Assembly: GCA_964595665.1 (NCBI GenBank)
Contig: CAZQQS010000004.1
Coordinates: forward strand, 3,832-35,831
Source of the DNA: an uncultured archaeon
GTDB lineage: Archaea; Iainarchaeota; Iainarchaeia; Iainarchaeales; 0-14-0-20-30-16
Length of the DNA: 32,000 nt
Direction: 5' to 3'
Shown here one piece after another: positions 6,006-29,902 of this stretch (position 1 is its first letter; every line of letters begins with the position of its first letter). The translations under genes and the position numbers were made by a program. Below the pieces are notes generated by a model, which had not been told where the DNA came from, did no database searches, and worked only from the letters and a program-made list of their open reading frames with translations.

Positions 6006-6028
6006 TTATTTAAAATACAAGAAAAACT

Positions 6029-8413: not shown

Positions 8414-8476
8414 AAAACCACCCTCATAAAAACTACACTAAAATAATATCTAGTCTTTTATAAAGGTTTCTCTTAT

Positions 8477-9187: not shown

Positions 9188-9348
9188 TTAATCACCTAAA
9201 CTATATATTATATAATACAGAAACATTTATATATTCTTTGAGTTAAATACTAAAAATGCATATATTTTTAAAAAAAAGTTAAATATAAAAAAAACAAAAA
9301 AAATATAAATGCATACCCGGTATTTATTTATGTTTAAACGGTGATGTA

Positions 9349-9933: not shown

Positions 9934-9937
9934 GATT

Positions 9938-12926: not shown

Positions 12927-12976
12927 ATTATATATAATAAGTATAGCTTTATATTTTTAATCTTTATTAATTTTTA

Positions 12977-13477: not shown

Positions 13478-14055
13478 TCCTTATCATCATCTGCAAATGT
13501 TTCAGCATAAAAATAATATATGTCTAAAAGTTTTCTATTCCAAGTAGATTCTTGTAATCCAGCTTCCAAACATAATCTATCTAAAAATTCATATTTATCA
13601 GGATACATTTTCCACATAGTAGGTAAGAAAACTGTTTTTTGTAAACCTTCTTTAATTACTAAACCCATTCTTGAATCTATTTTAGATAATAAATCATCTT
13701 TAGTATTATATTCTAATTTTTTAACTTCTGTTAATAAAGAAATTTCAATAGTTAATCTTGGCAAATCTAATTTTGTTATAGGTTTATGTTTTTTTGAATA
13801 AAACCCAGCATTAATTGCATTTTCAATTACTCCTTGATAAATATATTTCAAAGGTTCAACATATCCTGAAACGGCTCTTAAATAATTGTCTTCGATAAAA
13901 ACAACATATACACCTTTTTTCTCAAAACAATCATCTTTTAATGATGTAAAATCAGGAACAAATTCTTTATTCATTAATTTTGTCTCTAATGCTGTTCTAG
14001 CAAACTCTAATAATTGTTTTTGCACTGCTTTTGAAGTCATAATCCCACCAACCAA
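13474..14055 (-). CDS. AMMECR1-domain protein
   Basis: AMMECR1-like segments are LRAVSGYVEP (the LRGCIG position), LTIEISLLTE, GLVIKEGLQKTVFLPTMW and LCLEAGL. Its stop codon overlaps the convergent PAP2 stop in TTAA. The real start is probably the internal MTSK, preceded by GGTGGG. Confidence 0.7.
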   Translation of the reverse strand: MVGGIMTSKAVQKQLLEFARTALETKLMNKEFVPDFTSLKDDCFEKKGVYVVFIEDNYLRAVSGYVEPLKYIYQGVIENAINAGFYSKKHKPITKLDLPRLTIEISLLTEVKKLEYNTKDDLLSKIDSRMGLVIKEGLQKTVFLPTMWKMYPDKYEFLDRLCLEAGLQESTWNRKLLDIYYFYAETFADDDKD

Positions 14056-14067
14056 ATTTATATTTAT

Positions 14068-14175
14068 TCACTCTTTTTCAACATTTTTATTATTTTTCTT
14101 ATCTCTATAATTAAATATTAATATGAATATAATTAAAAGCACTATCATAATTAACAAAGTTATTGTTATAATCAT
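14068..14175 (-). CDS. Possible 35-aa single-TM micro-protein, translationally coupled to the upstream M50 gene
   Basis: Hand-translated sequence is MIITITLLIMIVLLIIFILIFNYRDKKNNKNVEKE. Its ATG overlaps the M50 stop codon (TAATG). It has a hydrophobic helix followed by a basic tail. It is too short to appear in the supplied track. Confidence 0.3.
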   Translation of the reverse strand: MIITITLLIMIVLLIIFILIFNYRDKKNNKNVEKE

Positions 14176-15293
14176 TACAACACCCTATGTATTTTAATAT
14201 AATCTGCAAAATCTGTTCTTTTAATTACCCCTATAATCCCTTTTTCTTTACCTTCTACTACAGGCATAATCTCCAAATCTTTGGCAACCATATATTGTGC
14301 AACAAAAGCTAAATTCTCTCGAACATTTATCGCATCAACAACTCTCGCAATTTTAACTACCTTAGTTCCAGGCCACAAATCTTTACTTAATTTAGAAATA
14401 TCTTCTACACTAATTACCCCATAACCTTCATTTAACTCTACAACTGCATCTGGAATTCTTAAATCTTTCATTTTAGAAAAACAATCCATTACACTTGTAT
14501 CACTTTTAAACAATAAATCAGGCTTGACCATAAAAGTCTTAATAGATTTACCCTCTAAAACGCGCAAAATCTCATATTCTCTAAATTCTCTCATTGTAGC
14601 ATAATAAATAAATAAACCAATTAAAACAATCAAAATATCCCAAAAGAATAATCCAGTTAAAACAACAATTAATGCCACAACCTTACTCAAATATGGAACA
14701 ATCTTATTTGCAGTAGTTTCTCCAAAGATTATAGTTAATAATGCTTTTATTAATCGTCCACCATCCATAGGCATAGCAAATATAAATGCATTAAATGAAA
14801 ATAATAAAAATGCAATCCAAAACACAAAAAACAATGGAAAACTAACTAAACTAAAATCTATTGTTTGTGCCGTTAATGTATTTTTTAATAATATTTCAGC
14901 AGGCCATAATTGAGGCAATAATAAAGTACCAATTAATGCAGCACCAAGCATTATTAAAAAATAAACTAATAAACCCACAAACCCATAAATTAATTCTTGT
15001 TTTGGATTATCAAAATCTTTACCAAAAAATTTCTTTGTGCCAAAAGGATAAACAATATATTTTCTTAATTTCAAAGAAAACCTTTTAGCCAATAATAATT
15101 GAAAACCATCATGAATTAAATTAAAAACAATAAACGTAACAAAAAGTAAAAAAACAAATAAAGCTTTTAGATTATGAAAAATTATTAAACCTAAAAGCAA
15201 ACCTATAAAGAAAAATATAAAAGTAGTATCGATCTCAAAGATACCAATAGTCAAAGTAAATTTAGATTTTGACTTAAAGGTATCCAAGATCAT
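14175..15293 (-). CDS. M50 (site-2 protease) family membrane protein with C-terminal CBS pair; HExxH motif degenerate
   Basis: The M50 topology is present. The second metal-ligand motif NAFIFAMPMDGGRL is intact. At the HExxH position the sequence reads IHDGFQLLLAKRF. Two CBS repeats lie at the C-terminus. Confidence 0.75.
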   Translation of the reverse strand: MILDTFKSKSKFTLTIGIFEIDTTFIFFFIGLLLGLIIFHNLKALFVFLLFVTFIVFNLIHDGFQLLLAKRFSLKLRKYIVYPFGTKKFFGKDFDNPKQELIYGFVGLLVYFLIMLGAALIGTLLLPQLWPAEILLKNTLTAQTIDFSLVSFPLFFVFWIAFLLFSFNAFIFAMPMDGGRLIKALLTIIFGETTANKIVPYLSKVVALIVVLTGLFFWDILIVLIGLFIYYATMREFREYEILRVLEGKSIKTFMVKPDLLFKSDTSVMDCFSKMKDLRIPDAVVELNEGYGVISVEDISKLSKDLWPGTKVVKIARVVDAINVRENLAFVAQYMVAKDLEIMPVVEGKEKGIIGVIKRTDFADYIKIHRVL

Positions 15294-15302
15294 TTAAATC
15301 AC

Positions 15303-15599
15303 TCATAATGTTTCTAATTCTAAACCTTTTGACCATTTTAAAACCAAATTTATTATAAAAGCCATAATATATGCTATTAAAAAAGCCATTATAGGTGTAG
15401 CGATCAAAACTACAATAGAATATAAAACCCATGAACCCCAACTAGATGCTCCATAAAAGAAACTATTTTGAGATAAAAGTTTATAAAACAAATCAAATAT
15501 TGTGTATATTGTTGTTAAAAACAAAGTATAAATCCCCATTACCTTTGCAAAGGAAAAATACTTTATTTTAGATATTATAATACCTGCCAAAGAAACCAC
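15303..15599 (-). CDS. Hypothetical small membrane protein
   Basis: It has two or three predicted TM helices. The start is GTG, or an in-frame TTG a few codons later, next to a GAGGTG motif. It lies 10 nt downstream of... upstream neighbour M50 on the same strand. Confidence 0.45.
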   Translation of the reverse strand: MVSLAGIIISKIKYFSFAKVMGIYTLFLTTIYTIFDLFYKLLSQNSFFYGASSWGSWVLYSIVVLIATPIMAFLIAYIMAFIINLVLKWSKGLELETL

Positions 15600-15683
15600 C
15601 TCTTTTTATTAGCAATTATAATATAATAATAAGGTATTTAAATATGTTACCCTTAAATATATAAGATAAAAGAAGGTGTTAAA

Positions 15684-16184
15684 ATGTTTTTCATAAAAAA
15701 ATTATTAAATAAAAGTAAGAATATTGCAGTTTTTGTTGACGGCCCAAATATGTTAAGAAAAGAATTAAATATTGATTTGAGACAAATCAAAGATATATTA
15801 AAAGATTATGGGAAAATAAAAATTGGAAAAGTATTCTTGAATCAATTTGCTCCTACAAAATTATCTGAAGCAGTTGTAAATCAAGGTTTTCAAGTAGAAA
15901 CATCTGTTGGAGATGTTGATGTTATGATGGCTGTTGAAGCAACATATACTGCATTTAACAAAAATATAGATATTATTTGTATGGTTACTCGAGATTCTGA
16001 TTTTATACCAGCAATACAAAAAGCAAAAATTATGGGTAAAGAAACTATGGCAATATTAGTTGATGAATCGAGTGCTGCTGCATTAAAAAATACTGTAGAT
16101 TATATAATCATATTAAACAAAATGCCTCAAAACCCACAAAACAATAATAGAAATAATAATTACAACAGAAATAACAGAAGGTAA
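15684..16184 (+). CDS. NYN-domain (LabA/TIGR00288-like, PIN-related) putative ribonuclease with Asn-rich tail
   Basis: NYN acidic motifs are IAVFVDGPNM, GDVDVMMAVEA and TRDSDFIPAIQKAK. The C-terminal low-complexity tail is PQNPQNNNRNNNYNRNNRR. AGGTG Shine-Dalgarno lies upstream. Confidence 0.75.
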   Translation: MFFIKKLLNKSKNIAVFVDGPNMLRKELNIDLRQIKDILKDYGKIKIGKVFLNQFAPTKLSEAVVNQGFQVETSVGDVDVMMAVEATYTAFNKNIDIICMVTRDSDFIPAIQKAKIMGKETMAILVDESSAAALKNTVDYIIILNKMPQNPQNNNRNNNYNRNNRR

Positions 16185-16188
16185 GATA

Positions 16189-16665
16189 ATGAACATCCCT
16201 CAAGGCAAACCGATTATTAAAAACGTAAGTACATTAAAATTAAATTATGAATCTATGTTAAACGATTTAATAATTAAGAAATTTAATGGATATGTTTGCT
16301 TAACTTTAAATGATAAATTAGGTTATGAAGATGGGTTCATAGTATTTCAAAATGGAATCATATTAGGAGCATATTATAATTTACTAGATAAAAACAAAGA
16401 ATTTTATAGTGAAAATGCTATTAGATTTTTTGTTAAGGGTTTAAAAAGCAACTTTGGTGCTTTAGATGTATACACTTTAACCAAAGAACAAACCGAATTA
16501 TTATTAACTTTTAATGAAAAAATACGAAATAAGCCCATAAATAGCATTAAATATTTAAATGAATTTACCCCTAATAATAGTAATGAAGAGCTATTTGTAG
16601 AAGAAAAAGAAGAAAATAAATATGATTTGTTTAAAAAAATCGGTTTAGGGAATATAAAAATTTAG
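16189..16665 (+). CDS. Hypothetical protein (weak PATAN/DUF4388-like pattern)
   Basis: The segment FNGYVCLTLNDKLGYEDGFIVFQNGIILGAYY resembles the G-x-L...G-x-I-x-F-x-x-G-x-I-x-x-A pattern of PATAN-type domains. This is weak, eye-level similarity only. The gene starts 4 nt after the NYN gene. Confidence 0.45.
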   Translation: MNIPQGKPIIKNVSTLKLNYESMLNDLIIKKFNGYVCLTLNDKLGYEDGFIVFQNGIILGAYYNLLDKNKEFYSENAIRFFVKGLKSNFGALDVYTLTKEQTELLLTFNEKIRNKPINSIKYLNEFTPNNSNEELFVEEKEENKYDLFKKIGLGNIKI

Positions 16666-16673
16666 GTGAAAAT

Positions 16674-17174
16674 ATGGGTATAATAAAAAAAATCTCAAGA
16701 TATCTTTTAGGAATAGATGATACTGAGATGTCAAACCAAGAAAAATTTATTAAAAATTTTTATAATTCTCAAAAAATAACTTTTAGAGATATAGACAAAA
16801 CACATATAGCTAGTTTTATTGATACTTTATTGAAAAAGCATGATTTAATTTATTTTGGATTAGTTTCAAATAGAAAAATATTATTAAGTTCAGAGGAAAA
16901 AGTAAATAAAGAAATTTTGAATTATTTTGATGTTTTTGAAAACATTAGGGGAAATTTAAAAGATAAAATTGTTTTAATTAAAGGAAGTCCTTGGATAGGT
17001 ATATTTGAAAAAGAAGATTATATTTTTGTAACTAAACGAGAAGTAAAATTAAGTGAGATGGAAATTAATGCAATCGCACATGATGTTTTGAATTGCAAAG
17101 AAATGTATGATACTAATGAACCAATTAAAAGTTTAAACATACAAAAAGCAATTATAAAAAAAACAGCTGGGTAA
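16674..17174 (+). CDS. Hypothetical protein with basic amphipathic N-terminus
   Basis: The N-terminal peptide is MGIIKKISRYLLG. The central LIYFGLVSNRKILLSS segment is vaguely Roadblock/LC7-like. AGGTGA Shine-Dalgarno lies upstream. The gene sits between the unknown ORF and minD. Confidence 0.45.
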   Translation: MGIIKKISRYLLGIDDTEMSNQEKFIKNFYNSQKITFRDIDKTHIASFIDTLLKKHDLIYFGLVSNRKILLSSEEKVNKEILNYFDVFENIRGNLKDKIVLIKGSPWIGIFEKEDYIFVTKREVKLSEMEINAIAHDVLNCKEMYDTNEPIKSLNIQKAIIKKTAG

Positions 17175-17184
17175 ATAAATTTAA

Positions 17185-17976
17185 ATGGGGATATTTATGG
17201 TTAGAATAATTACTTTTGCCTCTGGAAAAGGAGGAGTTGGAAAAACAACAATTACTGCTAATTTAGGTATAGCATTAAAACAAATAGGTAAAAAAGTTTT
17301 GTTAATTGATGCCGATGTTACAATGGCAAACTTAAGTTTAATATTAGGTATGGAATCTTCACCTATTACAATTAATGATGTTTTGAGAGGAGAAGCAAAT
17401 ATTGAAGATGTAATTTACAAAGGTCCAGCAGGAATAGATATTATACCTTCATCATTATCTTTACAAAACTTTCAAGCATTAGATTTGTCTAAAATTCCTC
17501 AAATTGTAAAAAAAGTTTCTTATAATTATGATTTTATTTTATTAGATTGTTCTGCTGGAGTTGGAGAAGATACTTTAGCAGCAATGGCTGCAGCAACAGA
17601 AGTAATGTTAGTGATAAATCCATTTTCATTATCAATAGCTGATGCTTTAAAAGCAAAAATTATGGCACAAAAAATAAATGCAAAACCAGTAGGAATTATA
17701 TTAAACATGGTTGGAAAATATAAAGGTGAAATAAAAGAAGAAGAAATTATTAAAATGATGGAATTGCCAAGTTATGGTAAAGTTCCTTTTGATGAAATAG
17801 TTAGACAAAACTTTTATTACAAACAAATTGTTCCAATAATGGTTAAACATCCTAATAATGGAGCAAGTATTGCAATAAAAAATATTGCTTTAAGATTATT
17901 AGGAAATAAAGTAGAAGATCAAGAAGTTAAAAAAGGATTTTTTTCTTGGTTAAAAAATATATTTGGAAAAAAATAA
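17185..17976 (+). CDS. minD: MinD/ParA-family P-loop ATPase (archaeal MinD type)
   Basis: The deviant Walker A is SGKGGVGKTT. LLIDAD and ILLDCSAG segments follow. The C-terminal amphipathic tail KKGFFSWLKNIFGKK resembles a MinD membrane-targeting sequence. The likely true start is MVRII at 17197. Confidence 0.85.
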   Translation: MGIFMVRIITFASGKGGVGKTTITANLGIALKQIGKKVLLIDADVTMANLSLILGMESSPITINDVLRGEANIEDVIYKGPAGIDIIPSSLSLQNFQALDLSKIPQIVKKVSYNYDFILLDCSAGVGEDTLAAMAAATEVMLVINPFSLSIADALKAKIMAQKINAKPVGIILNMVGKYKGEIKEEEIIKMMELPSYGKVPFDEIVRQNFYYKQIVPIMVKHPNNGASIAIKNIALRLLGNKVEDQEVKKGFFSWLKNIFGKK

Positions 17977-18000
17977 ATTAATATTTAAGGGGTGTAAATT

Positions 18001-18225
18001 ATGGTAGAAACAAAACCGTTTGATTTTTTAAATTCAAGCATTAACAAAAATGTTTTAGTATTATTAAAAGGAAATACTAGAATTAGAGGTATATTAAGAG
18101 CATTTGATATCCATATGAATATTGTATTAGATGATGCTGAAAGATTAAATGAAGATAATACTGTAGATATAAAGATAGGTAAAACTATTATTAGAGGAGA
18201 TACAGTAATATTATTATCATTATAG
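18001..18225 (+). CDS. Sm-like archaeal protein (LSm/SmAP)
   Basis: Sm1 motif: VLVLLKGNTRIRGILRAFDIHMNIVLDDAE. Sm2 motif: IIRGDTVILL. The 74-aa length is typical. GGGGTG Shine-Dalgarno lies upstream. Confidence 0.85.
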   Translation: MVETKPFDFLNSSINKNVLVLLKGNTRIRGILRAFDIHMNIVLDDAERLNEDNTVDIKIGKTIIRGDTVILLSL

Positions 18226-18231
18226 TATTAT

Positions 18232-18257
18232 AAGTAGGATATTCCTACTTCTTTTTA
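18232..18257 (+). terminator. Hairpin plus T-tract, putative terminator of the NYN-MinD-Sm operon
   Basis: AAGTAGGA (18232-18239) pairs with TCCTACTT (18243-18250) around a 3-nt loop. CTTTTT follows immediately. Confidence 0.45.
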
Positions 18258-18321
18258 TATTTTAATTAAAAATATTTATATAGTGGGAATAATGTAATTA
18301 TTATATCTCAAATATAAATAT

Positions 18322-19632
18322 GTGATTGTTATGGAGTTTCAAGAATTAAAAGGCATTAAAGAATATTTACCTGAAGAACAAGAAGTTCGAGAGTATATTA
18401 CTGATATATTAAAAACTAATTTTAAAAAATATGGTTTCAAGCCTTTAGAAACAAGTATATTAGAAGACTTTGCTATTGCTTCTAGCAAATATGCTGGTGG
18501 AGAAGAAATCTTAAAAGAAACTTATAAATTAACAGATCAAGGGGAAAGAAAACTTTGTTTGAGATATGAATTGACTTTCAAATTAGGTAAATTAATTGCA
18601 TTAAATCCAACATTAAGAATGCCATTAAAAAGATATGAAATTGGAAAAGTATTTAGAGATGGTCCAGTAAAAACTGGAAGACTAAGAGAATTTACTCAAT
18701 GTGATGTTGATGTTGTTGGTGTAAAAAATCTAGCTTTAGAAGCAGAATTTATTGCAATGTCTTTTGATATTTTTAATAATTTAAATTTGCCTATAAACAT
18801 CCAAATCAATAATAGAAAATTATTGTTTGGTTTATTTGAAGCTTGTAATATCCCTGAAAAAGAATTTATTAACACAGCTTTATCTTTAGATAAATTAGAA
18901 AAAATAGGCGAAAAAGATGTTAGAAAAGAATTAAATGAAATTCTAAATGAGGATTCTATTGACGCTTTATTTGAATTATTAAATGCCTGTAATTCTTTAA
19001 ATAATAACTCAAAAAAATTAGAATTTTTAAAAACAAAATGCCAAAACAAATTATTTTTAGAAGGTTATAATGAATTAAATGAAATCTTTTCTTATGCTAA
19101 AGATTTGGGCATAAAAGAAAATTTTTATTTTATACCAACATTATCTAGAGGATTAGGTTATTATACTGGTCCAATGTGGGAAGTATATTTACAAAAATCA
19201 AAAATAAAATCAAGTGTTGCTGCTGGAGGTCGTTGGGATTCAATGATTCAAAAATTCTTAGAAAGCGATAGAGAATATCCTGCATCAGGAATGACTTTTG
19301 GATTAGATGTTATTTATACAGCATTAAAAGAAGATAATATAAAATTAAATGATTTTCAAAAAACTCCCAAAGTATTAATTATACCTTTAGATAAATTAAA
19401 TACTTGTTTAGAATTAGCTACAGAATTAAGAAATAATAATATTAGCGCAAGTATAGCATATGATGATAAATTAAGTAAAGCTTTAGATTATGCAAACAAA
19501 GAATTAATTGAATATATTATTGTTGTAGGTAAAAAAGAAATCGAAACTAAATTATTTGGTTTAAAAAATATGCTTTCTGGTGAAACTAAAAATCTAAACT
19601 TAAAAGAAATGATTAATGAATTAAATCATTAA
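18322..19632 (+). CDS. hisS: Histidyl-tRNA synthetase
   Basis: Class II motifs are MPLKRYEIGKVFRDGPVKTGRLREFTQCDVDVVG (motif 2) and GGRWD...ASGMTFGLD (motif 3 region). A C-terminal anticodon-binding domain is present. The track start is GTG, but ATG at 18331 is more likely. Confidence 0.9.
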   Translation: MIVMEFQELKGIKEYLPEEQEVREYITDILKTNFKKYGFKPLETSILEDFAIASSKYAGGEEILKETYKLTDQGERKLCLRYELTFKLGKLIALNPTLRMPLKRYEIGKVFRDGPVKTGRLREFTQCDVDVVGVKNLALEAEFIAMSFDIFNNLNLPINIQINNRKLLFGLFEACNIPEKEFINTALSLDKLEKIGEKDVRKELNEILNEDSIDALFELLNACNSLNNNSKKLEFLKTKCQNKLFLEGYNELNEIFSYAKDLGIKENFYFIPTLSRGLGYYTGPMWEVYLQKSKIKSSVAAGGRWDSMIQKFLESDREYPASGMTFGLDVIYTALKEDNIKLNDFQKTPKVLIIPLDKLNTCLELATELRNNNISASIAYDDKLSKALDYANKELIEYIIVVGKKEIETKLFGLKNMLSGETKNLNLKEMINELNH

Positions 19633-19661
19633 TTATATAAATCCTTGCGGCTTTTTCTATT

Positions 19662-20804
19662 ATGGCTGAAGAAATTTATATTAATAAGTTTGATGATCTA
19701 ATTAAAACTATTGAAAATGAGAGAAAAAAAGGCAAAATTCTAATAGCACAATTAGCTCCTGCTGTTCGAATTACTATTGGTGAAGAATTCGGATATATTG
19801 CCGGAGAAAATTTAACTAAAAAATGTTTTAGTGTTTTAAAACAATTAGGATTTGATTATATTTTTGATACCCCTTTAGGTGCTGATTTAGCAGTATATGA
19901 AGAAGTTCATATATTAAAACAATTATTAGATTCTAAAGATGAAAGCTTTTTTCCATTATACAATTCTTGTTGTATTGGGTGGAAAAGATATGCTGAGCGA
20001 ATGCATTCTTATTTAATGCCTCATGTTTCTTCAATAGCTTCACCTAACCAAATTGTTGGAAGTATAGCTAAAAACTATTTAAGCAAAAAAATTAATAAAA
20101 AAGTTTCTGATATTGTTGTAGTTGGAATAATGCCTTGCACTTTAAAAAAGTTTGAAACTTTAGATACTTTTGATTATTTTGAGAATAATAAAAAGAAAAA
20201 TGCAAAATTTGTTGATTATGTTGTTACTACTTTAGAATTAACACAATGGATTAAAAATAAAAATATAAACTTTCACGAAATAAAAGATATAGATGTAATA
20301 AATACAGCATCAAAAGAAGGAACTATTTTTGGAGTAACAGGTGGTGTAACAGAATCTTTTTTAACTGCTTTTGCAAAATATTTAGGAGAAAAAAAAGAAA
20401 TCTTAGATTTTAGAGAAAATGAAGAATTACGAACATATAAAGTTAAAATTGGGGAATATGAATTAAAAGTTGCAATTGTTTTTGGTATAGGAAATATAAA
20501 TAAAATCTTAGAACAAATTGCTGAAGGTGAATTTTATCACTTTGTTGAAATGATGTTTTGTACTAATGGCTGTGTTGGAGGTCCTGGACAACCAAAGTGT
20601 TCAGAAAGTGTTCTAGAAGAAAGAGCAAAAGCTATGCGAAATACAGCAGATAAAATCCCTAAAATAACTTGTTTTGATAATAGTGCATTATTAAAAATTT
20701 ATTCTGAATTAAATATTACTCCCAATTCAGAAAAATCAAAAAAATTATTCTTTTTAAAACAAGAAAATAAAAAAGAATCTAAAAAAATATTATCTTGGAA
20801 TTAA
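19662..20804 (+). CDS. [FeFe]-hydrogenase-like protein, H-cluster domain only (no accessory FeS domains)
   Basis: The sequence is collinear with hydrogenase H-domains (IAQLAPAVRITIGEEFG, FDTPLGADLAVYEE). L1 is NSCCIGW (19962-19982), L2 is MPCTLKKFE (20130-20156) and L3 is EMMFCTNGCVGGPGQP (20547-20594). GVTGGVTES is also present. No Cys-rich ferredoxin-like N-terminus exists. Confidence 0.8.
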   Translation: MAEEIYINKFDDLIKTIENERKKGKILIAQLAPAVRITIGEEFGYIAGENLTKKCFSVLKQLGFDYIFDTPLGADLAVYEEVHILKQLLDSKDESFFPLYNSCCIGWKRYAERMHSYLMPHVSSIASPNQIVGSIAKNYLSKKINKKVSDIVVVGIMPCTLKKFETLDTFDYFENNKKKNAKFVDYVVTTLELTQWIKNKNINFHEIKDIDVINTASKEGTIFGVTGGVTESFLTAFAKYLGEKKEILDFRENEELRTYKVKIGEYELKVAIVFGIGNINKILEQIAEGEFYHFVEMMFCTNGCVGGPGQPKCSESVLEERAKAMRNTADKIPKITCFDNSALLKIYSELNITPNSEKSKKLFFLKQENKKESKKILSWN

Positions 20805-20807
20805 GTA

Positions 20808-21080
20808 TTAAACTTTATCATTCATTAGCTTTTTAACATCCTTACTTATTTTCAAACCCAAATTAGTTATTTTATATACTTTATAATTTCTATCATTAGG
20901 ATTTTCACAAACAATTAATTTTTCATCCCGCAAATATTTTAAAGTTCTACTTAAATGAGACGCATATAAAAAAGTTATTTTTACTAATTGAGACTGCAAG
21001 ATTTGTTTTTTTTCGGAAATATAAAATAATACATCTCGTTTATTTTTAGAACGAATTAAATCTAAAACCAACTTATCCAT
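20808..21080 (-). CDS. Small winged-helix transcriptional regulator (ArsR/MarR-like)
   Basis: The 90-aa protein has an HTH-plus-wing pattern: ILQSQLVKITFLYASHLSRTLKYLRDEKLIVCENPNDRNYKVYKITNLG. Confidence 0.6.
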   Translation of the reverse strand: MDKLVLDLIRSKNKRDVLFYISEKKQILQSQLVKITFLYASHLSRTLKYLRDEKLIVCENPNDRNYKVYKITNLGLKISKDVKKLMNDKV

Positions 21081-21114
21081 AATGAAAAATAGGTTCGATT
21101 AATAAAAACTAGAT

Positions 21115-21143
21115 TTACCAACATTTTACCAATATATTACCAA
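21115..21143. promoter_or_regulatory. Three direct TTACCAA repeats at exact 11-bp spacing in a divergent promoter region
   Basis: TTACCAA occurs at 21115-21121, 21126-21132 and 21137-21143. The repeats lie between the wHTH regulator gene (minus strand) and the 21200 gene (plus strand). Confidence 0.4.
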
Positions 21144-21199
21144 AAGTAATATAAAGGTTAATAAAACAATATATTTATACTTTTTTAAGGAGGAATATT

Positions 21200-21886
21200 A
21201 TGATTTCTAAAAAGTCTAAAAATTATTTATTGCCCATTATGGCCATTATCTCATTTATTTTAATAATACTTATTATAGTATTTGGAGTTTTCAATAACAA
21301 TCTAACTAAACAAATAAACGAATTAAGCTTAAAAAATATAGATTTAAATAAACAACTAAATCTAAATAATGAATTATATTCAAAGACGATAATTGATTAT
21401 GATAATAATTTGTTAAAAGAAATTAATTTAAATGATGCATTTAAAAATTATTTATATGATAATTCGGAATTAACAAAAAAAGAGTTTATATTATCAGAAG
21501 ATCTTGAAGACATTAATACAATATTAAATTATAATACTTGTAAAGCATATTCTGAAAAATTAGAGGATTATTATAATATTATTAATCAAAAAGAAGAATT
21601 ATACTTGAATTTTATAAATAACTATCAAGAATATTCTAAAAATAAAGTGTGTAGTGATAAATTAAATAATTTAAAAATACAATCTGAAGAAATCATAAAA
21701 CTTAGGTCAGAATATTTAGATGCCATTACTAATTGGTGTTATGGATATCATAAAATAGATTGGTCTAATACTTGGGAAGAAAAATATTTGATGCCAGAAA
21801 ATAAGGCTGCAGATAAATTAAATAAAAAAATATCTGAAAATACAGAATTTGGTATAGAATTAACAAAAACATGCTTCTCAAATTGA
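21200..21886 (+). CDS. Hypothetical N-terminally membrane-anchored protein
   Basis: It has one TM helix (LLPIMAIISFILIILIIVFGVF) and a helical or coiled soluble region with four Cys. AGGAGG Shine-Dalgarno lies upstream. Confidence 0.5.
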   Translation: MISKKSKNYLLPIMAIISFILIILIIVFGVFNNNLTKQINELSLKNIDLNKQLNLNNELYSKTIIDYDNNLLKEINLNDAFKNYLYDNSELTKKEFILSEDLEDINTILNYNTCKAYSEKLEDYYNIINQKEELYLNFINNYQEYSKNKVCSDKLNNLKIQSEEIIKLRSEYLDAITNWCYGYHKIDWSNTWEEKYLMPENKAADKLNKKISENTEFGIELTKTCFSN

Positions 21887-21895
21887 GGATAAAAT

Positions 21896-22831
21896 ATGAA
21901 ATCTAATGTAATATGCCCTTATTGTAAAACAGAAGTAGAAATTAATTGGGAATCTGAAGATGCAAATAAGCAAGAAGAATATAAATGCTATAAATGTAAA
22001 AAGAATTTCTATTTTACTCCAGAAATATCTGATAGTTGGTTTGATGCAATATTGGGTTTTATTATAATATTAGGCATTATTATAGGTTCGATTTGGATTA
22101 TATATTTTGGAATATCAAAAACTATTTCTTTTTTTTCAAATAATGATACTTCAGATTATCAAAAGCAACAAGATTTAATTGCACAACAACAATATGACTT
22201 GCAAAAAGCACAATTAGATGCTGAAAGAGCTAAAATTCAAGCAGAAACTGATAGATTAAAAAAAGAAATTGCCAAAATACAAGCAGAACAAAAAGCAGAA
22301 ATAAACACAATAAAACAATACACATCTAAAGTATTATTTGATGATAGCCAATTTAGAACTATTGCAAAACAAATATCCCAAGGATGTAATGGTGAACAAG
22401 AATGTCAATTATATAAAATATATAGATTTGTAGTTACTTATTTTGAATACTATTCAGATCCGAGAAATAGCGAATATATACAATCACCAACAGAAACTTG
22501 GAATTCAAAGGGAGGCGATTGTGAAGATTTAGGAATAATATTACAAACATTACTTGAAAGTGTTGGAATTAAAACCTATTCTGTATTTACAACAAATCAT
22601 TATTATGTTTTAGGATGTATTTCAGATTCAGGTAAAATTTTAGAATATACAAATAATGAACTAAATAAATATGATAAGTATTATGATAAAATTCATTATT
22701 ATTCTATTAATAATTTAGAATGTGTGCCATTAGAACCTACTGCAGGAGACTTTGGATATCCTGGACACTTTACTACATCATATAGTGAAGCTTATGATCC
22801 GTTAACCTTGAATAAAGTTATATTAACTTAA
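21896..22831 (+). CDS. Membrane protein with N-terminal zinc ribbon, coiled coil and C-terminal transglutaminase-like cysteine-protease domain
   Basis: The zinc ribbon is CPYC...CYKC. A TM helix and a Q/K/A-rich coiled coil follow. The transglutaminase-core pattern is KGGDCEDLGIILQTLLESVGIKTYSVFTTNHYYV (Cys and His present). Confidence 0.6.
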   Translation: MKSNVICPYCKTEVEINWESEDANKQEEYKCYKCKKNFYFTPEISDSWFDAILGFIIILGIIIGSIWIIYFGISKTISFFSNNDTSDYQKQQDLIAQQQYDLQKAQLDAERAKIQAETDRLKKEIAKIQAEQKAEINTIKQYTSKVLFDDSQFRTIAKQISQGCNGEQECQLYKIYRFVVTYFEYYSDPRNSEYIQSPTETWNSKGGDCEDLGIILQTLLESVGIKTYSVFTTNHYYVLGCISDSGKILEYTNNELNKYDKYYDKIHYYSINNLECVPLEPTAGDFGYPGHFTTSYSEAYDPLTLNKVILT

Positions 22832-22836
22832 ATTAA

Positions 22837-23484
22837 TTATTTCCAACCATATGTAACTCTATGTTCTAAAAATCCAGTAATTGTTTTATAATTTAATTTT
22901 TGTAAAAATTTTTCAACATCACTATCAGTTGTTTTGTCATTAATAATATGATATGTTGCAATTGCTAAATTTATTTCATTATTTTTTAATAAATTCTTTG
23001 CACTTTTTAAAACATATAATTCAGAACCTTCAACATCCATTTTAATAAAATTAGGAATTAATTTTAATTCTTTTGAAATAGTATCTAATTTTATTACGTC
23101 TATGGCTTTACTTTTTAACACCTCATTTTCAAATATAAAAGATGAACCTCTTGAAGTTCTTTCATAAAAATCTTTTTTGCCATCAATATCAAAAACACCT
23201 TTATTAATTGCCACAACATTTTTTAATTTGTTTAACTCTAAATTAGCCAACAATTTTCTATAAGATATTTTATCGGGTTCAAAAGCAATTACTTTTCCTT
23301 TTGGGCCAACTAATTTAGAAGCAATAATAGTAAAACAGCCAACATAAGAACCCAAATCAAAAACCACATCTCCTTTTTTCAAGTTATATTTACCAAAATA
23401 CCCTTGCATTATGTTTAGATCTTTATCCAAATTATTGTGGCTTTTAAACTTAATTCCTTGAAAAGAGTAGTCTTTAATATCCAT
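22837..23484 (-). CDS. FkbM-family SAM-dependent methyltransferase
   Basis: VFDLGSYVGCFTIIASK is motif I. The segments KVIAFEPD and IKMDVEGSELYVLKSAKNLL are typical of the FkbM/TIGR01444 family. Confidence 0.75.
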   Translation of the reverse strand: MDIKDYSFQGIKFKSHNNLDKDLNIMQGYFGKYNLKKGDVVFDLGSYVGCFTIIASKLVGPKGKVIAFEPDKISYRKLLANLELNKLKNVVAINKGVFDIDGKKDFYERTSRGSSFIFENEVLKSKAIDVIKLDTISKELKLIPNFIKMDVEGSELYVLKSAKNLLKNNEINLAIATYHIINDKTTDSDVEKFLQKLNYKTITGFLEHRVTYGWK

Positions 23485-23535
23485 AGAATTAGAAAATAGG
23501 GAGAGCTTTTTAAATCCTTCTTTTTTACTATTTAT

Positions 23536-24138
23536 ATGTTTAAACTTATTGTTTTTAATCTTTGGGATACTTTAGCAAAAATTAATGGTAAACAAACATT
23601 AGACTTACTAATTAAAGAATTTAAAATTAAAGATAAGAAAGTATTCAAAAGAAAATTTAATGAAATTTATTTAACAAAACATTGGAATTCTAAATTTGAA
23701 GCTTACAGAGAAATCTGTAGAGAGTTGAATTTGGGAACAGATGAAAATACAATTAATAAAGCAATAAATATTTCTAATAAAAATCTAATTACTATAGAAG
23801 TCTTTCCTGAGACATTAAAACTATTACAAAGTTTAAAGAAAAAATACAAATTAGGGATATTATCTAATACAAGTATATTTTTAAAAAACATTTTAGAAAA
23901 AGAAACTAAAATTTTAAAATATATTGATTATCCTTTGTTCTCATATGATTTAGGTGCAATTAAACCAGAAATAAAAGTATTTAAAAATTTATTAAATATT
24001 ACAAATTTAAAACCTGAAGAAATACTCTATATTAGTAATGATAACACAAAAGATTTAAAACCCGCAAAATCTTTAGGTATGAAAACGCTTTTATTTAAAG
24101 ATTTAGAGCAATTAAAAAAAGATTTAGAGGAATTATAA
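23536..24138 (+). CDS. HAD-superfamily hydrolase-like protein (atypical motif I)
   Basis: HAD motifs II-IV are recognisable (LGILSNTS, IKPEIKVF, ISNDNTKDL). Motif I reads VFNLWDTL instead of FDxDGTL. Confidence 0.6.
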   Translation: MFKLIVFNLWDTLAKINGKQTLDLLIKEFKIKDKKVFKRKFNEIYLTKHWNSKFEAYREICRELNLGTDENTINKAINISNKNLITIEVFPETLKLLQSLKKKYKLGILSNTSIFLKNILEKETKILKYIDYPLFSYDLGAIKPEIKVFKNLLNITNLKPEEILYISNDNTKDLKPAKSLGMKTLLFKDLEQLKKDLEEL

Positions 24139-24536
24139 TGGATTGTGTGTTTTGTAAAATAGTTAAAGGAGAAATACCTTGTCATAAAATATATGAAAGT
24201 AATAATTATTTATGCTTCTTAGATATAAATCCAATAACTGAAGGGCACGTATTATTAATACCTAAAAAACACATTGATTATGTTTTTGATATGCATAGAA
24301 ATGAATATTCTAGATTGTTCTTAGAAGCAAAAATGATTGCTGAAAAATTAAAAAAGGCAACAAATGTAAAACGAATTGGCATAACAATAGAAGGTTTTGC
24401 AGTTCCTCATGTTCATATACATTTGGTGCCGTTAACAAAAGGAAATCAATTAAATCCAGAAAATGCAAAACCTTTAAGCCATGATAAATTAATAACAATA
24501 GCTGATAAAATTAAAAAACAATTTTTGGAGGAATAA
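24138..24536 (+). CDS. HIT-family (histidine triad) nucleotide hydrolase/transferase
   Basis: The N-terminal segment is CVFCKIVKGEIP and the histidine triad is HVHIHLVP. Its start overlaps the upstream stop (TAATG). Confidence 0.85.
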   Translation: MDCVFCKIVKGEIPCHKIYESNNYLCFLDINPITEGHVLLIPKKHIDYVFDMHRNEYSRLFLEAKMIAEKLKKATNVKRIGITIEGFAVPHVHIHLVPLTKGNQLNPENAKPLSHDKLITIADKIKKQFLEE

Positions 24537-24538
24537 AA

Positions 24539-24664
24539 ATGAAAAAGTTAATTAATAAAATAAAAGGTATTTTTGGTAAAAAAAAGGAAATTAAAGAGAA
24601 AAAAGAACTAAAACCAAAGGAAAAACCTAAAAAAAAGAAAGTTTCAAAAAAAGCTAAAAAATGA
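24539..24664 (+). CDS. Possible 41-aa lysine-rich micro-protein
   Basis: Hand-translated sequence is MKKLINKIKGIFGKKKEIKEKKELKPKEKPKKKKVSKKAKK. GGAGGA lies 7-8 nt upstream of the ATG. A hairpin plus T-tract follows. It is not in the supplied track, where the antisense ORF 24511-24708 is listed instead. Confidence 0.35.
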   Translation: MKKLINKIKGIFGKKKEIKEKKELKPKEKPKKKKVSKKAKK

Positions 24665-24678
24665 TTAAAACTAAAAAC

Positions 24679-24719
24679 TGCTAAAGCAAAAAACCTAAGC
24701 TTTAGCAAGTCTAATTTTT
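24679..24719 (+). terminator. Hairpin plus T-tract
   Basis: TGCTAAAGC (24679-24687) pairs with GCTTTAGCA (24699-24707) around an 11-nt loop. TTTTT follows at 24715-24719. Confidence 0.35.
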
Positions 24720-24786
24720 AAAACCACGAGATTCCTTTTTAAACTGAATTAACTTAATATATTTAGTTTTTGGAAAGGGTGATAAT

Positions 24787-24936
24787 TTGAATTTCAATGT
24801 TAATGGAGTAAGAGGCAATACGCCTAAAATGGGATATACCTGTATGAATTGTAGAAAAGAAATCGAGAATCCAGAAGGCCCTTTTGGAAAAAGATTTTGC
24901 TCTGAAGAATGTAGAAGAGAATATATGGGAAAGTAG
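24787..24936 (+). CDS. Small FCS/TRASH-like zinc-ribbon protein (35-49 aa)
   Basis: Hand-translated sequence is (L)NFNVNGVRGNTPKMGYTCMNCRKEIENPEGPFGKRFCSEECRREYMGK. The Cys pattern is CxxC-x17-CxxxC with an FCSxxC signature. GGGTGAT precedes the TTG at 24787. An alternative ATG lies at 24829. It is not in the supplied track. Confidence 0.45.
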   Translation: MNFNVNGVRGNTPKMGYTCMNCRKEIENPEGPFGKRFCSEECRREYMGK

Positions 24937-24951
24937 TTTTTTAAATTACTT

Positions 24952-25596
24952 TTATTTTATTACTTTACCAGTTTCAATATACCATAAATATAAATCTAAT
25001 TCTGCCAAGTTTAAATTGGCTTTTTTTCCTATTTTTTCTAGTATTCTTTCTGCGTCTAAATATACTTTTGGAGTAATCGTTTTTGGTTTTATAATTAATT
25101 TATTTTTAACTAATAGATCTAAAATATGAAAATCAATAATTGCTAAATTTTCATAACCTATATTTCTTAAAAAATGACTTGACTCTTTTAAACCTAAACC
25201 TTTAACATTTTTTGCTAAATAATCTCTTAATTCAAATTCATCTTTAATATCATCTAAAATATTTCTTAAATTATGTTTTCTTGCTTCAACAATATATTTT
25301 GCCCTAGTATTAGGAAATCTATGACCCAATTCTTTTAATTTTTCAGCTAACTTATTTTCATCTAATGTAAATAATTTATCTTGTAAAGTATTTTGAATCT
25401 TTAATGATTTTTCTGCATTAAAATTTGCTGCCATTAAACAAAAACATAATTCTTGAAATAATAAATTATTAGATGTTTTCTTCAAAGATTTAAAGTCTTT
25501 TATTTTATTATCAATTATATTTTTTATTTCTGTTTTCTGTAAAATTTTTATTTTATTTATTAAATCAATCATAATTTCACATAAATCTTTTTTCAA
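24952..25596 (-). CDS. ogg: 8-oxoguanine DNA glycosylase/AP lyase, archaeal Ogg2 type (HhH-GPD)
   Basis: The segment VKGLGLKESSHFLRNIGYENLAIIDFHI matches the HhH plus catalytic Lys/Asp signature of Ogg2-type N-glycosylase/DNA lyases. Confidence 0.75.
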   Translation of the reverse strand: MKKDLCEIMIDLINKIKILQKTEIKNIIDNKIKDFKSLKKTSNNLLFQELCFCLMAANFNAEKSLKIQNTLQDKLFTLDENKLAEKLKELGHRFPNTRAKYIVEARKHNLRNILDDIKDEFELRDYLAKNVKGLGLKESSHFLRNIGYENLAIIDFHILDLLVKNKLIIKPKTITPKVYLDAERILEKIGKKANLNLAELDLYLWYIETGKVIK

Positions 25597-26164
25597 CTAT
25601 CTTCCAATCAATTGAATTAAAAATTGTGTTAACATAATCTACTTTTTTTAAACCATAATCTAACATATATGCGTGTTCAAAAACATCTATTACCAACAAT
25701 ATATCTAATCCAGCTAATAATCCTAAATCATGTTCATTTACCCAAATATTAAATAATTTATTTTCTAAAGAATCATATGCTAATACTACCCAACCTATGC
25801 CTCTCATAGCTGTTAAAGATTTAAATTCTTTCTCGAAATTATCAAAAGAGTTATATTGTTCAAGAATTAATTTCCCTATATTTGATTCCGCATTAAATTT
25901 TATTGGATTTAAAGACAAATTTTCAAAATATAATTCATGTAATCTCATTCCATTAAATTCCCAACCAAATCTTCTATGTAATTCCGCATATTCTGGACTT
26001 GCTTTATCTAAAGTACTTAACAAAGTTAATAATTTATTTGTATTATTTACATATCCCTGATACAAAGTAAAATGATTTTTTAATAAATCATTTGATAAAC
26101 CATTTATTCCCAATAAAAAATCATAATTTTTTATTTCATACATATTTTCACCTATAAAAGACAC
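25577..26164 (-). CDS. Fe/Mn-family superoxide dismutase-like protein (divergent N-terminal motif)
   Basis: The C-terminal signature DVFEHAYMLDYG carries the Asp/His ligands. The central segment NGMRLHELYFENL and N-terminal segment NHFTLYQGYVNNTN are also present. The likely start is the internal MYEIK. The 3' end overlaps ogg by 20 nt. Confidence 0.7.
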   Translation of the reverse strand: MSFIGENMYEIKNYDFLLGINGLSNDLLKNHFTLYQGYVNNTNKLLTLLSTLDKASPEYAELHRRFGWEFNGMRLHELYFENLSLNPIKFNAESNIGKLILEQYNSFDNFEKEFKSLTAMRGIGWVVLAYDSLENKLFNIWVNEHDLGLLAGLDILLVIDVFEHAYMLDYGLKKVDYVNTIFNSIDWKIVEKRFM

Positions 26165-26279
26165 CCAAAACCCTTTTTAAACATTATTATTTTCCAAAAT
26201 AAAACATACATTTATATACTTTTAAGGCCCAATTACATAATACCAAACCGTTTTGGTAAGTATAGGAGAATGAAAATAG

Positions 26280-26495
26280 ATGTATAATAGAGATGATAGA
26301 AATAATAACAGAAGTAGCTTTGGAGGCAATTACCAAAGACAAATGCACGATGCTACATGTAGTGAATGCGGTAAAAAAACACAAGTTCCATTTAAACCAA
26401 AAGAAGGATTACCAGTTTTTTGTAAAGAATGTTATTTCAAAAACAAAAATGGTGGAAAAACTTACACTAAAAAAGAAGACGAAGAAGAATATTAA
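26280..26495 (+). CDS. Small zinc-ribbon protein with Asn/Arg-rich N-terminus and acidic tail
   Basis: CSECGKKTQVPFKPKEGLPVFCKECY forms a CxxC-x17-CxxC ribbon. TAGGAG Shine-Dalgarno lies upstream. The competing frame 26293-26499 has no motif. Confidence 0.6.
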   Translation: MYNRDDRNNNRSSFGGNYQRQMHDATCSECGKKTQVPFKPKEGLPVFCKECYFKNKNGGKTYTKKEDEEEY

Positions 26496-26559
26496 TTAAT
26501 TTATTAATGACTATTTATAGAGTATTTTTTTAAATTTACTCTTTCTTTTTTTTATTTTT

Positions 26560-27423
26560 CTAATTAGTCCTAATTATTCTTAAAGTAAATAATTCTGGTG
26601 CCAAATGAGTATTTACGATTTCAAAATCAAAATCTAAATTAAGATTATAATCTTTATTATATCTTTTTACAGCCAACTTCAAATATTTTAAAAAATATTC
26701 TCTAGCATATTCATTACTTAACCTAGGAATATTAGTATTTTCTAAATAATAAGATAATTTCCCTATGGCATTATGATCTTTAATAATTTTCTTAGACATG
26801 ATTAAATTTCTTAACCTACTTTGCAATTGCAAAACATTTATAGTTAAATATGCTTCACCACCTTTTGCCAACATTAACGCGGTAAAAAAAGATGTTTTTT
26901 CAGGATAATTTGTATGATATCCTACAGAATACACACCCTCAATAAAATCATATCTACCAAGAATTTCTTTTAATAAATATCGATTATATTCTGGATTTGT
27001 CCACAGCTCTTCAAAAGTAAAATTATCTGAAAAATCTTTTCGAACTATTTTTCTAGCACTTCTAACTATTGATTTAGTTAAACCAAATACATCAATTTCA
27101 GGAGATTTACCTACAATTTCAAAACTTCGTTTTATTTTAGGGATATTTTCTCCTAATGATGGGCCTAAAATCATTATTTTAGGTTTTTTAATATTAGATG
27201 TAAGAATAGAATCATAAAACTGAGGATATTTTATATCTTGACCATTTACATTCCAATCAGTATCTCTAGATTTTGATTTTTTAGATTCGAAAATATAATC
27301 TATAAAAAAACTATTATTTATTTTCTTTCTATTTGCTCTAACCTGGTCTTTAAACTCAGGAGTTAAAAATACTTTTCCGTCTTTTATGTAAGTTCTTTTT
27401 GGTTTTAGCAAAGGTTTAAACAT
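26560..27423 (-). CDS. Hypothetical protein, possibly Rossmann-fold methyltransferase-like
   Basis: The order of segments is IMILGPSLGE, EIDVFGL, YDFIEGVY, LAKGGEAYL. This loosely follows class I methyltransferase motifs I, II, IV and post-IV. The similarity is weak. Confidence 0.4.
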   Translation of the reverse strand: MFKPLLKPKRTYIKDGKVFLTPEFKDQVRANRKKINNSFFIDYIFESKKSKSRDTDWNVNGQDIKYPQFYDSILTSNIKKPKIMILGPSLGENIPKIKRSFEIVGKSPEIDVFGLTKSIVRSARKIVRKDFSDNFTFEELWTNPEYNRYLLKEILGRYDFIEGVYSVGYHTNYPEKTSFFTALMLAKGGEAYLTINVLQLQSRLRNLIMSKKIIKDHNAIGKLSYYLENTNIPRLSNEYAREYFLKYLKLAVKRYNKDYNLNLDFDFEIVNTHLAPELFTLRIIRTN

Positions 27424-27501
27424 ATTAATTTAATATAAAGATTATTATTTAAACAGTATTCTTTTGCAAAGTTATTTATAATCTAATAATATTATAATAT
27501 T

Positions 27502-28299: not shown

Positions 28300-28301
28300 A
28301 T

Positions 28302-29246: not shown

Positions 29247-29270
29247 TTCAATTAATTCTACAAATATAAA

Positions 29271-29900: not shown

Positions 29901-29902
29901 AT

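Follow-up and report, generated by a model that had tools for sequence, protein, structure and literature searches.

A predicted minimal group A [FeFe]-hydrogenase with altered surface proton-pathway residues in an uncultured archaeon

The window analysed here, a stretch of 32,000 nucleotides from contig CAZQQS010000004.1 (assembly GCA_964595665.1) of an uncultured archaeon of the Iainarchaeota, encodes HydA, a 380-residue protein resembling the catalytic domain of [FeFe]-hydrogenases. Minimal archaeal enzymes of this type are of interest as streamlined H2 catalysts, and the only known system for H-cluster maturation is missing from the majority of their hosts. The locus raised three questions, which had been posed in an earlier sequence-only reading of the stretch: how HydA would be matured, what would donate its electrons, and whether it is a catalyst or instead a sensor or Nar1-like protein. 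All three proved to have been published as open already, and the third had been partly answered for the family to which HydA was assigned. The preferred reading of HydA, given a probability of about three in four, is that of a minimal group A hydrogenase which evolves H2 with electrons from ferredoxin and is encoded by a reduced archaeal genome.

Domain architecture and H-cluster pocket

The open reading frame of hydA was exact, and it corresponded to an H-domain along its full length, as the sequence-only reading had claimed. The Pfam profile Fe_hyd_lg_C was covered in full with an E-value of 2.4e-66 and a score of 224 bits against a cut-off of 22. It was followed by a C-terminal segment resembling the hydrogenase small subunit (SSU), for which Fe_hyd_SSU remained sub-threshold at 20 bits against a cut-off of 24, and which was modelled as helices of residues 315–330, 341–349, and 357–363. 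The H-domain and the SSU-like segment alone made up the Pfam annotation of HydA, which included no PAS or other signalling domain. The protein contained eight cysteine residues in total, none of them N-terminal of residue 55, and no Fe–S motif beyond the H-cluster cysteines. The absence of an N-terminal F-cluster domain, also claimed earlier as an M1-like feature, was thus borne out.

Among the NCBIfam models, HydA was ranked in the order group A6 (290 bits), group A (265 bits), clostridial, and group B1 (116 bits). None of these scores reached the full-length cut-offs, since HydA has nothing that corresponds to the N-terminal, ferredoxin-like portion of the models. The matches found by phmmer in the PDB were only catalytic group A enzymes, with E-values of 1e-60 to 1e-48. 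The AlphaFold2 model, built on 63 homologues, was confident, with a mean predicted local distance difference test (pLDDT) score of 90.8 and a predicted template-modelling (pTM) score of 0.90. In Foldseek the whole query was superposed on 8a6t (HydA of T. kivui HydABC), CbA5H, and Clostridium pasteurianum CpI, with template-modelling (TM) scores of 0.81–0.85 and a probability of 1.0. The overlay on CpI, which had been proposed in the sequence-only reading, gave TM scores of 0.82–0.85.

Residue equivalences between HydA and CpI were taken from phmmer alignments to the CpI chains. In the first alignment stretch, which was ungapped from residue 261, the HydA residue number equalled the CpI number minus 198, and a two-residue gap occurred later. 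The four cysteine ligands of the CpI H-cluster, C300, C355, C499, and C503, were matched by C104, C159, C300, and C304 of HydA, and these were invariant in 63 of 63 homologues. The M, P, C, K, and E residues of motif L2 were likewise invariant in all 63, as were the C and M residues of motif L3. The second-sphere catalytic residues C103, K162, M157, and M298 were invariant in the HydA family, and P128 aligned with CpI P324. From these alignments, C104, C159, C300, and C304 are predicted to ligate the [4Fe-4S] part of the H-cluster, with C304 bridging to the 2Fe subcluster, and the pocket of the 2Fe subcluster is predicted to be lined by K162, M157, M298, A32-P33-A34, and F223. The complete set of cysteines reported for L1, L2, and L3 was therefore confirmed, and the concern that these residues might not superpose on the H-cluster ligands was removed by the CpI alignment, which places them on the ligands.

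The hydA gene is under purifying selection. Pairwise ratios of nonsynonymous to synonymous substitution (dN/dS) were 0.11–0.15 against the closest homologues and 0.17–0.28 for distant pairs, in which dS was near saturation. The sensor or Nar1-like functions raised as alternatives in the sequence-only reading were weakened by this selection and by the invariance, within the family, of residues that only catalysis and the 2Fe subcluster require.

Relation to other [FeFe]-hydrogenases

In the homology search, about 100 short proteins of 345–390 residues came ahead of the long bacterial group A enzymes, and their labels included Micrarchaeota, Iainarchaeum, Diapherotrites, Bilamarchaeaceae, and Anstonellales. 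The same pattern of short archaeal homologues was found in a scan of GTDB species genomes. In a neighbour-joining tree, the roughly 100 short archaeal forms grouped apart from an outgroup of six long bacterial forms. The nearest non-archaeal relatives were bacterial group A enzymes, with identities of 36–42%.

On this sequence evidence HydA very probably belongs to the DPANN 'minimal group A1' family of Greening et al. (Cell 2024, PMC11216029). It would add a fairly divergent new member to a class published in 2024, and the 2024 picture stands. The statement of the sequence-only reading that very small archaeal versions had only recently been discussed was correct in that such enzymes exist, but they form a published and partly characterised family. 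In that work, archaeal group A1 enzymes averaged 363 residues, were hosted by Iainarchaeota, Micrarchaeota, and Nanoarchaeota, and were described as monomers that lack accessory clusters and expose their H-cluster to the solvent (PMC11216029). Two of them made H2 after maturation with synthetic [2Fe]adt, and ferredoxin-dependent fermentative H2 production was given as the likely role (PMC11216029). HydA, at 380 residues, resembled them in its SSU-like C-terminal segment and in having each of the five conserved cysteines.

The group A1 representative in Figure 2A of PMC11216029 is the enzyme of the Micrarchaeota genome UBA95 (locus L054, 9989..11131), which was 34% identical to HydA (E 4e-68). 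Both proteins gave the same NCBIfam ranking, consisted of the H-domain only, came from hosts assigned to DPANN lineages, and had no adjacent maturase genes. The UBA95 enzyme, however, keeps TSCCPGW and the equivalents of CpI E282, R286, H565, and H569, whereas HydA has NSCCIGW, I84, L88, K360, and F364. The gene of the uncharacterised membrane protein hyd6TM lies directly downstream in UBA95 and is lacking beside hydA.

HydA1 of Chlamydomonas reinhardtii (PDB codes 3lx4 and 6gm5) resembled the archaeal HydA in having the H-domain only and no F-clusters, with a phmmer E-value of about 5e-50. Its chains are longer (442–457 residues), and its match to the archaeal protein was split into two stretches. 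In the algal enzyme, ferredoxin docks directly at the [4Fe-4S] cluster of the H-cluster, and maturation depends on HydEF and HydG. Its proton pathway is structurally conserved with that of CpI and sensitive to mutation, for example at E144. CpI itself (group A1, M3; PDB code 4xdc and others) had the same H-domain fold as HydA, with an identity of 31–32%, and shared the cysteine ligands, K358, M353, M497, and the inner relay C299/E279/S319. The CpI residues P301, E282, R286, S357 (L161 in HydA), H565, and H569 were not retained in HydA. CpI also has about 200 additional N-terminal residues, which carry four accessory Fe–S clusters.

The 'ultraminimal' group E enzymes, represented by the 33-kDa Fm of Ca. 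Forterrea multitransposorum, are monomeric, as is predicted for HydA, and their hosts are likewise assigned to DPANN. They contain a single [4Fe-4S] cluster and a 2Fe subcluster, are active after artificial maturation, and average 286 residues, and the characterised enzyme nearest to Fm belongs to group C (PMC11216029). Membership of HydA in group E was rejected on its length of 380 residues, its SSU-like tail, and its best matches in group A.

The representative library also contained a predicted protein of 4,122 residues (P0251), with seven tandem units of H-domain and small subunit followed by flavodoxin and FAD-binding domains, which is probably a eukaryotic gene model fusing tandem hydrogenase genes.

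The L1 loop and the proton pathway

Motif frequencies were counted in 63 short homologues aligned with six long bacterial forms. The residue after the cysteine pair of L1 was I in 55 and V in 8 of the short homologues, in which L1 mostly read NSCC[I/V]GW, whereas P was found in all six long forms. The Pro-to-Ile exchange in TSCCPxW pointed out by the sequence-only reading was therefore real but not peculiar to this open reading frame, and I or V at this position is, on the alignment, a clade signature. A second signature was GGPGQP in L3, with P308 in 62 of the 63 short forms compared with GGGGQP in the long forms. At the L2 position of CpI S357, the short homologues had L and the six long forms A.

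These changes were distributed in steps across the archaeal family. In the UBA95-like loci (L054, L068, L040, and L079), L1 read TSCCPGW and the sites of CpI E282, R286, and H569 were occupied by E, R, and H. Intermediate loci (L043 and L050) had TSCCIGW with the same three residues. In the large NSCC[I/V]GW clade, the P301 site was I or V, the E282 site was E or D, R286 was lost, and the H569 site was mostly Y. In the subclade of HydA itself, comprising 13 sequences of 59–95% identity, the P301 site was I, the E282 site was I, V, A, or N, the R286 site was L or I, and the H569 site was F, H, Y, or C.

Further active-site variants were observed among the short archaeal homologues. In L049, L056, and L078, L1 read NSCCPGT, with the L1 Trp replaced by Thr, and L3 contained GGAGQP. 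In the sister branch of the HydA subclade, L013 (labelled 'Ca. Iainarchaeum sp.') and L028 (labelled 'uncultured archaeon'), encoding P0027 and P0079, Asp-Gly replaced CpI E278-E279 while all cysteine ligands were kept; these enzymes thus lack the glutamate whose loss abolishes CpI activity.

The position of the altered residue in the mobile TSC loop and the SOD, TrxR, and Ogg genes in the vicinity prompted the idea of an O2 'safety cap' of the CbA5H type. It was not supported, as the sites L364, P386, and A561, at which small residues allow the loop of CbA5H to move, carry bulky residues in HydA (Y100, V122, and F294), as they do in standard enzymes.

Compared with the complete C299-E279-S319-E282-R286 pathway of CpI, HydA had C103, E81, and S123 in place, and I84 and L88 differed. 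At the 'SHE' motif (S320, H569, and E278) and H565, S124 and E80 were present, and F364 and K360 differed. Four surface sites of the pathway accordingly differed: in CpI numbering, E282 was replaced by I, R286 by L, H565 by K, and H569 by F. All 13 subclade sequences kept the inner relay of C299, E279, and S319, and in all of them the H565 position was K, E, or H. Position 84 was non-acidic in the entire subclade, whereas the rest of the family mostly had E or D. Judged by alignment to CpI, the HydA subclade has lost the canonical surface residues of the proton pathway with its inner relay intact, and has the most reduced outer pathway in the family.

Mutational work on CpI gives a measure of such losses. 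The E282A and R286A variants keep 30–90% of the activity because water fills the gap, whereas E282Q acts as a steric block and leaves 8% activity in CpI and 0.4% in HydA1. In a 2026 preprint, S320, H569, and E278 were identified as the site at which protons enter and on which high activity depends, and the motif was described as missing from group B enzymes, which are 10- to 50-fold slower. In HydA, protons would run from C103 through water to E81 and S123, the inner part following from the alignment. From S123 they would probably reach the solvent via bound water, because the equivalents of E282, R286, H565, and H569 are absent. HydA is thus pictured as a working enzyme, but one that is probably slower or differs in its pH or bias profile. 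Alternatively, S123 and E81 may receive protons by way of an opening filled with water. Rescue of the outer path by water is plausible by analogy, as the CpI E282A and R286A variants tolerate invading water.

Several observations weigh against a fermentative, H2-evolving role. HydA has I105 in place of the Pro of the TSCCP loop, which is called highly conserved in the group A literature, and so departs from the prototypical group A enzyme. The Ile that replaces E282 is bulky and hydrophobic; it could keep water out and would then mimic E282Q more than E282A. HydA also lacks the 'SHE' histidine on which high activity reportedly depends. In addition, neither the window nor the 10 kb around the gene in 56 related archaeal loci contained ferredoxin, PFOR, or maturase genes.

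The loss of the fast proton entry of high-turnover group A enzymes in the subclade gave rise to the alternative that HydA binds an H-cluster but is slow and non-fermentative, acting as an H2 sensor, regulator, or redox-poising protein. The four changed surface residues, which are non-protonatable or otherwise unlike those of CpI, agree with this, and loss of the 'SHE' histidine correlates with 2–10% activity in group B enzymes. An assayed Iainarchaeum enzyme was 100-fold slower than a Micrarchaeota one (PMC11216029). The UBA95 enzyme, which was the modelled group A1 representative and may or may not be the Micrarchaeota enzyme assayed, has the canonical residues. However, the inner relay is preserved throughout the subclade, and the pathway of the known sensory groups is of quite another kind. 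In comparison with the sensory groups C/D (HydS), HydA showed only a partial likeness, its divergent outer pathway, since it has no signalling domain and its inner pathway is canonical. No conserved adjacent regulator was found across the relatives, and retention of a sensor with no hydrogenase under its control is improbable in a genome of about 1 Mb. A slow sensory or regulatory protein was therefore judged unlikely, and HydA as a fermentative H2-evolving enzyme was preferred.

HydA adds to the minimal enzymes a divergent, well-conserved lineage in which the surface proton gate and the TSCCP Pro are naturally absent and the inner catalytic machinery is intact. Its subclade represents a natural experiment on the outer-sphere residues needed for fast H2 catalysis, comparable with the 2018 and 2026 mutagenesis of CpI. 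A more far-reaching proposal, doubtful at present, is that the NSCC[I/V]GW clade, and especially the subclade lacking E282, R286, and H569, might take up protons in a way unlike all characterised group A enzymes, or that its Pro-less loop might alter catalytic bias or the response to O2, with the H-cluster assembled without HydEFG in either case. If true, the scaffold of a minimal hydrogenase would have been re-engineered by nature, and it would give access to the archaeal maturation route.

Maturation, electron supply and genomic setting

Pfam annotation of the non-nested open reading frames of at least 80 residues in the window gave no HydE, HydF, HydG, ferredoxin, PFOR, or NuoE/F, and a six-frame scan of the window found no CxxCxxCxxxCP (ferredoxin-type) or CxxxCxxC (radical-SAM-type) motif. 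Both results agree with the lack of hydE/F/G, ferredoxin, and NuoE/F genes nearby noted in the sequence-only reading. The canonical ferredoxin motif was found within 10 kb in none of the 56 archaeal loci (893 kb scanned), compared with 30 of 30 bacterial loci used as a positive control. An adjacent ferredoxin or PFOR gene, as reported for some metagenome-assembled genomes (PMC11216029), was likewise found in none of the 56. Two candidates for Fe–S partners were rejected: a 56-residue open reading frame just upstream of the hydrogenase gene in L085 encoded a small membrane peptide instead of a ferredoxin, and the ParA/NUBPL-like ATPase in the window, considered as an Mrp/NBP35-type Fe–S carrier, had no Cys motif and scored above the cut-off as an archaeal MinD.

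Since no ferredoxin, PFOR, or maturase was present in the window or within 10 kb in the 56 loci, the donor and the maturation of HydA can only be inferred. Electrons would enter directly at the solvent-exposed [4Fe-4S] cluster from a soluble low-potential donor, because HydA lacks F-clusters. The donor would most likely be a ferredoxin that receives its electrons from a 2-oxoacid oxidoreductase, the gene of which would lie in another part of the genome. The archaeon would be an anaerobe with a reduced genome that depends on a host, and HydA would serve it to dispose of reductant from fermentation as H2. The 2Fe subcluster would be installed by HydEFG encoded outside the window, or by the alternative route proposed for most such archaea. 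A full HydEFG set was reported in only 5 of 130 hydrogenase-encoding archaeal genomes, and an alternative maturation pathway was therefore proposed (PMC11216029).

The scarcity of maturases bears on a further alternative, in which the host is unable to make the 2Fe subcluster and HydA carries a [4Fe-4S] cluster only, serving in Fe–S protein assembly or electron transfer like eukaryotic Nar1/NARF. Nar1 proteins have an extra N-terminal cysteine cluster, and HydA, compared with Nar1 by such general features, had no counterpart to it in its N-terminus; the loss of catalytic residues that also marks Nar1/NARF was not seen in HydA either. The missing HydE/F/G genes in the window and around the related genes, the low count of full maturase sets among archaeal genomes, and the SufS-/IscU-like genes mostly 5–8 kb from the gene in 7–9 Micrarchaeota loci would all fit such a protein. 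Against it stand the invariance of C103, K162, M157, M298, E81, and S123 in the family under purifying selection and the best sequence and structure matches, all of which are catalytic group A enzymes. Moreover, members of the family bind [2Fe]adt and produce H2 (PMC11216029). A [4Fe-4S]-only function was accordingly considered very unlikely, and a catalytic HydA was retained.

The Fe–S genes of Micrarchaeota encode a cysteine desulfurase (Aminotran_5) and a NifU/IscU-like protein, for example at 19107..20312 in L020 and 18634..19089 in L023; they may bear on Fe–S supply, and none was found in the window.

The protein termed hyd6TM, with 4–6 transmembrane segments, has been associated with group A enzymes (PMC11216029). 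A matching protein of about 184 residues, with multiple transmembrane segments and no Pfam match, was encoded in 25 of 51 related archaeal loci, in most of them within 0–1.8 kb of the hydrogenase gene (for example at 11128..11676 in L054, 11063..11653 in L012, and 11056..11670 in L068). The hyd6TM profile had no match in positions 1..32000 of the window or in the subclade and sister loci fetched, whereas control loci gave about 1e-68.

The positions of hydA, its motifs, and its neighbours are listed in Table 1. The archaeal housekeeping genes reported beside hydA, hisS and the LSM/Sm gene, were both confirmed by annotation, and genes for AglB/STT3, NMD3, TrmB, DUF2226 ('conserved in archaea'), and archaeal MinD shared the contig. 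The gene order MinD-LSM-hisS-hydA was repeated in L081, L082, and L086. With homologues of 95% and 89% identity, the common order extended over MinD, LSM, hisS, hydA, methyltransferase, HAD, HIT, 8-oxoguanine glycosylase (Ogg), and superoxide dismutase (SOD), and later BacA and thioredoxin reductase (TrxR). This order was seen on independent contigs from a Logan assembly, from GCA_030154545.1, and from JGI (103 kb), and synteny was found in four other assemblies. Homologues of histidyl-tRNA synthetase (HisRS) shared their contigs with hydrogenase homologues to identities as low as about 60%, and more distant members of the subclade adjoined TFIIB, PolD, NurA, and a RuBisCO large-subunit gene. 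The closest labelled genome, 'Candidatus Diapherotrites' (Iainarchaeota), was 69% identical in the hydrogenase and 77% in HisRS, and the other named HisRS matches were to mixed DPANN archaea at 53–59%. Because gene order and HisRS co-occurrence are conserved in independent assemblies, hydA is a vertically inherited resident of the archaeal lineage.

An artefactual archaeal context, in which hydA is a bacterial fragment on a mis-binned contig or a very recent transfer, was also considered; the mis-binned contig had been named as a possible objection in the sequence-only reading. The nearest non-archaeal relatives of HydA are indeed bacterial, and archaea reportedly took up these genes from bacteria on more than one occasion (PMC11216029). 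However, hydA lies on one contig with the archaeal genes named above, the guanine-plus-cytosine (GC) content was uniform at 20–27% throughout the window, and the archaeal homologues cluster apart from the long bacterial forms. The pairing of hisS and hydA recurred in independent assemblies at 60–95% identity, and the recurring gene order at 89–95% identical homologues excluded a mis-binned fragment. A bacterial origin of the contig or a very recent transfer was thus effectively refuted by synteny.

Table 1. Positions in the window of hydA, its domains and motifs, and neighbouring features (aa, residues; nt, nucleotides)
Feature	Position	Strand	Basis or remark
hydA, 380-aa monomeric H-domain-only [FeFe]-hydrogenase, M1-type, archaeal minimal group A (predicted)	19662..20804	+	Open reading frame with ATG start; Pfam, NCBIfam, PDB, AlphaFold2
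H-cluster domain Fe_hyd_lg_C, residues 25-308	19734..20585	+	Pfam profile positions 1-245 of 245
C-terminal SSU-like segment, residues 316-363	20607..20750	+	Pfam Fe_hyd_SSU, sub-threshold
Proton-pathway helix EEVHILKQL, residues 80-88	19899..19925	+	E80=E278 and E81=E279 kept; I84=E282 and L88=R286 changed
L1 motif NSCCIGW, residues 101-107	19962..19982	+	C103=C299 (proton-relay Cys), C104=C300 ([4Fe-4S] ligand), I105=P301
S123-S124	20028..20033	+	CpI S319-S320 (proton-relay Ser; 'SHE' Ser), from CpI alignment
L2 motif MPCTLKKFE, residues 157-165	20130..20156	+	M157=M353, C159=C355 ([4Fe-4S] ligand), L161=S357, K162=K358 (CN- contact)
L3 motif EMMFCTNGCVGGPGQP, residues 296-311	20547..20594	+	M298=M497, C300=C499, C304=C503 (bridging Cys); CpI alignment from residue 491
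Archaeal-type MinD	17185..17976		Above NCBIfam cut-off
LSM/Sm gene	18001..18225	+	Syntenic neighbour, not functional partner
hisS	18322..19632	+	Immediately upstream of hydA; syntenic neighbour, not functional partner
Candidate archaeal promoter of hydA, TATA-like ttaattatataaatcctt	19629..19646	+	29-bp hisS-hydA spacer, 16-33 nt before ATG
Variable stretch	20808..22831		Directly after hydA
8-oxoguanine glycosylase	24952..25596	-	Oxidative-damage set
Fe/Mn superoxide dismutase	25577..26164	-	Oxidative-damage set
Thioredoxin-reductase-like flavoprotein	28302..29246	-	Oxidative-damage set
Bro-N domain protein	918..1223	-	Pfam BRO family N-terminal domain
PD-(D/E)XK Cas4-like nuclease	29903..31099	-	
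794-aa open reading frame	6029..8413	-	No Pfam match
365-aa open reading frame	11829..12926	-	No Pfam match
287-aa open reading frame	26560..27423	-	No Pfam match

A promoter of its own is weakly suggested for hydA, because the candidate element ttaattatataaatcctt was kept 5' of the gene in L081 and also in L084, in which the upstream gene is different. TTATATA-like words occur about 0.5 times per kb in this window of 24% GC, which weakens the suggestion. The scan of the window for bacterial-type promoters and terminators was uninformative, as expected for an archaeon, and no tRNA or Rfam match was found in scans of the window.

The stretch directly following hydA was variable, and contained a MarR-like winged helix-turn-helix gene, a gene for a 228-residue protein without Pfam match, and a transglutaminase-like gene. 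It was absent from L086, with its 95% identical homologue, in which an FkbM-type methyltransferase gene stood directly 3' of hydA. In L081 the first two genes were swapped for others, including a faint SocA_Panacea-like one, and the transglutaminase-like gene was kept.

A set of genes for oxidative damage and defence was located 4–8 kb downstream of hydA, which encodes an O2-sensitive type of enzyme. The set was syntenic in L081, L082, L083, and L086 and partly so in L084 (Ogg and SOD). A peroxiredoxin gene adjoined that of SOD in the closest relatives (L081–L083 and L086) and was lacking in the window.

The Bro-N domain protein and the Cas4-like nuclease were encoded on what is otherwise a housekeeping archaeal contig. 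Three open reading frames had no Pfam match, of which the one of 365 residues, beside NMD3, kept its position in L081 and L082.

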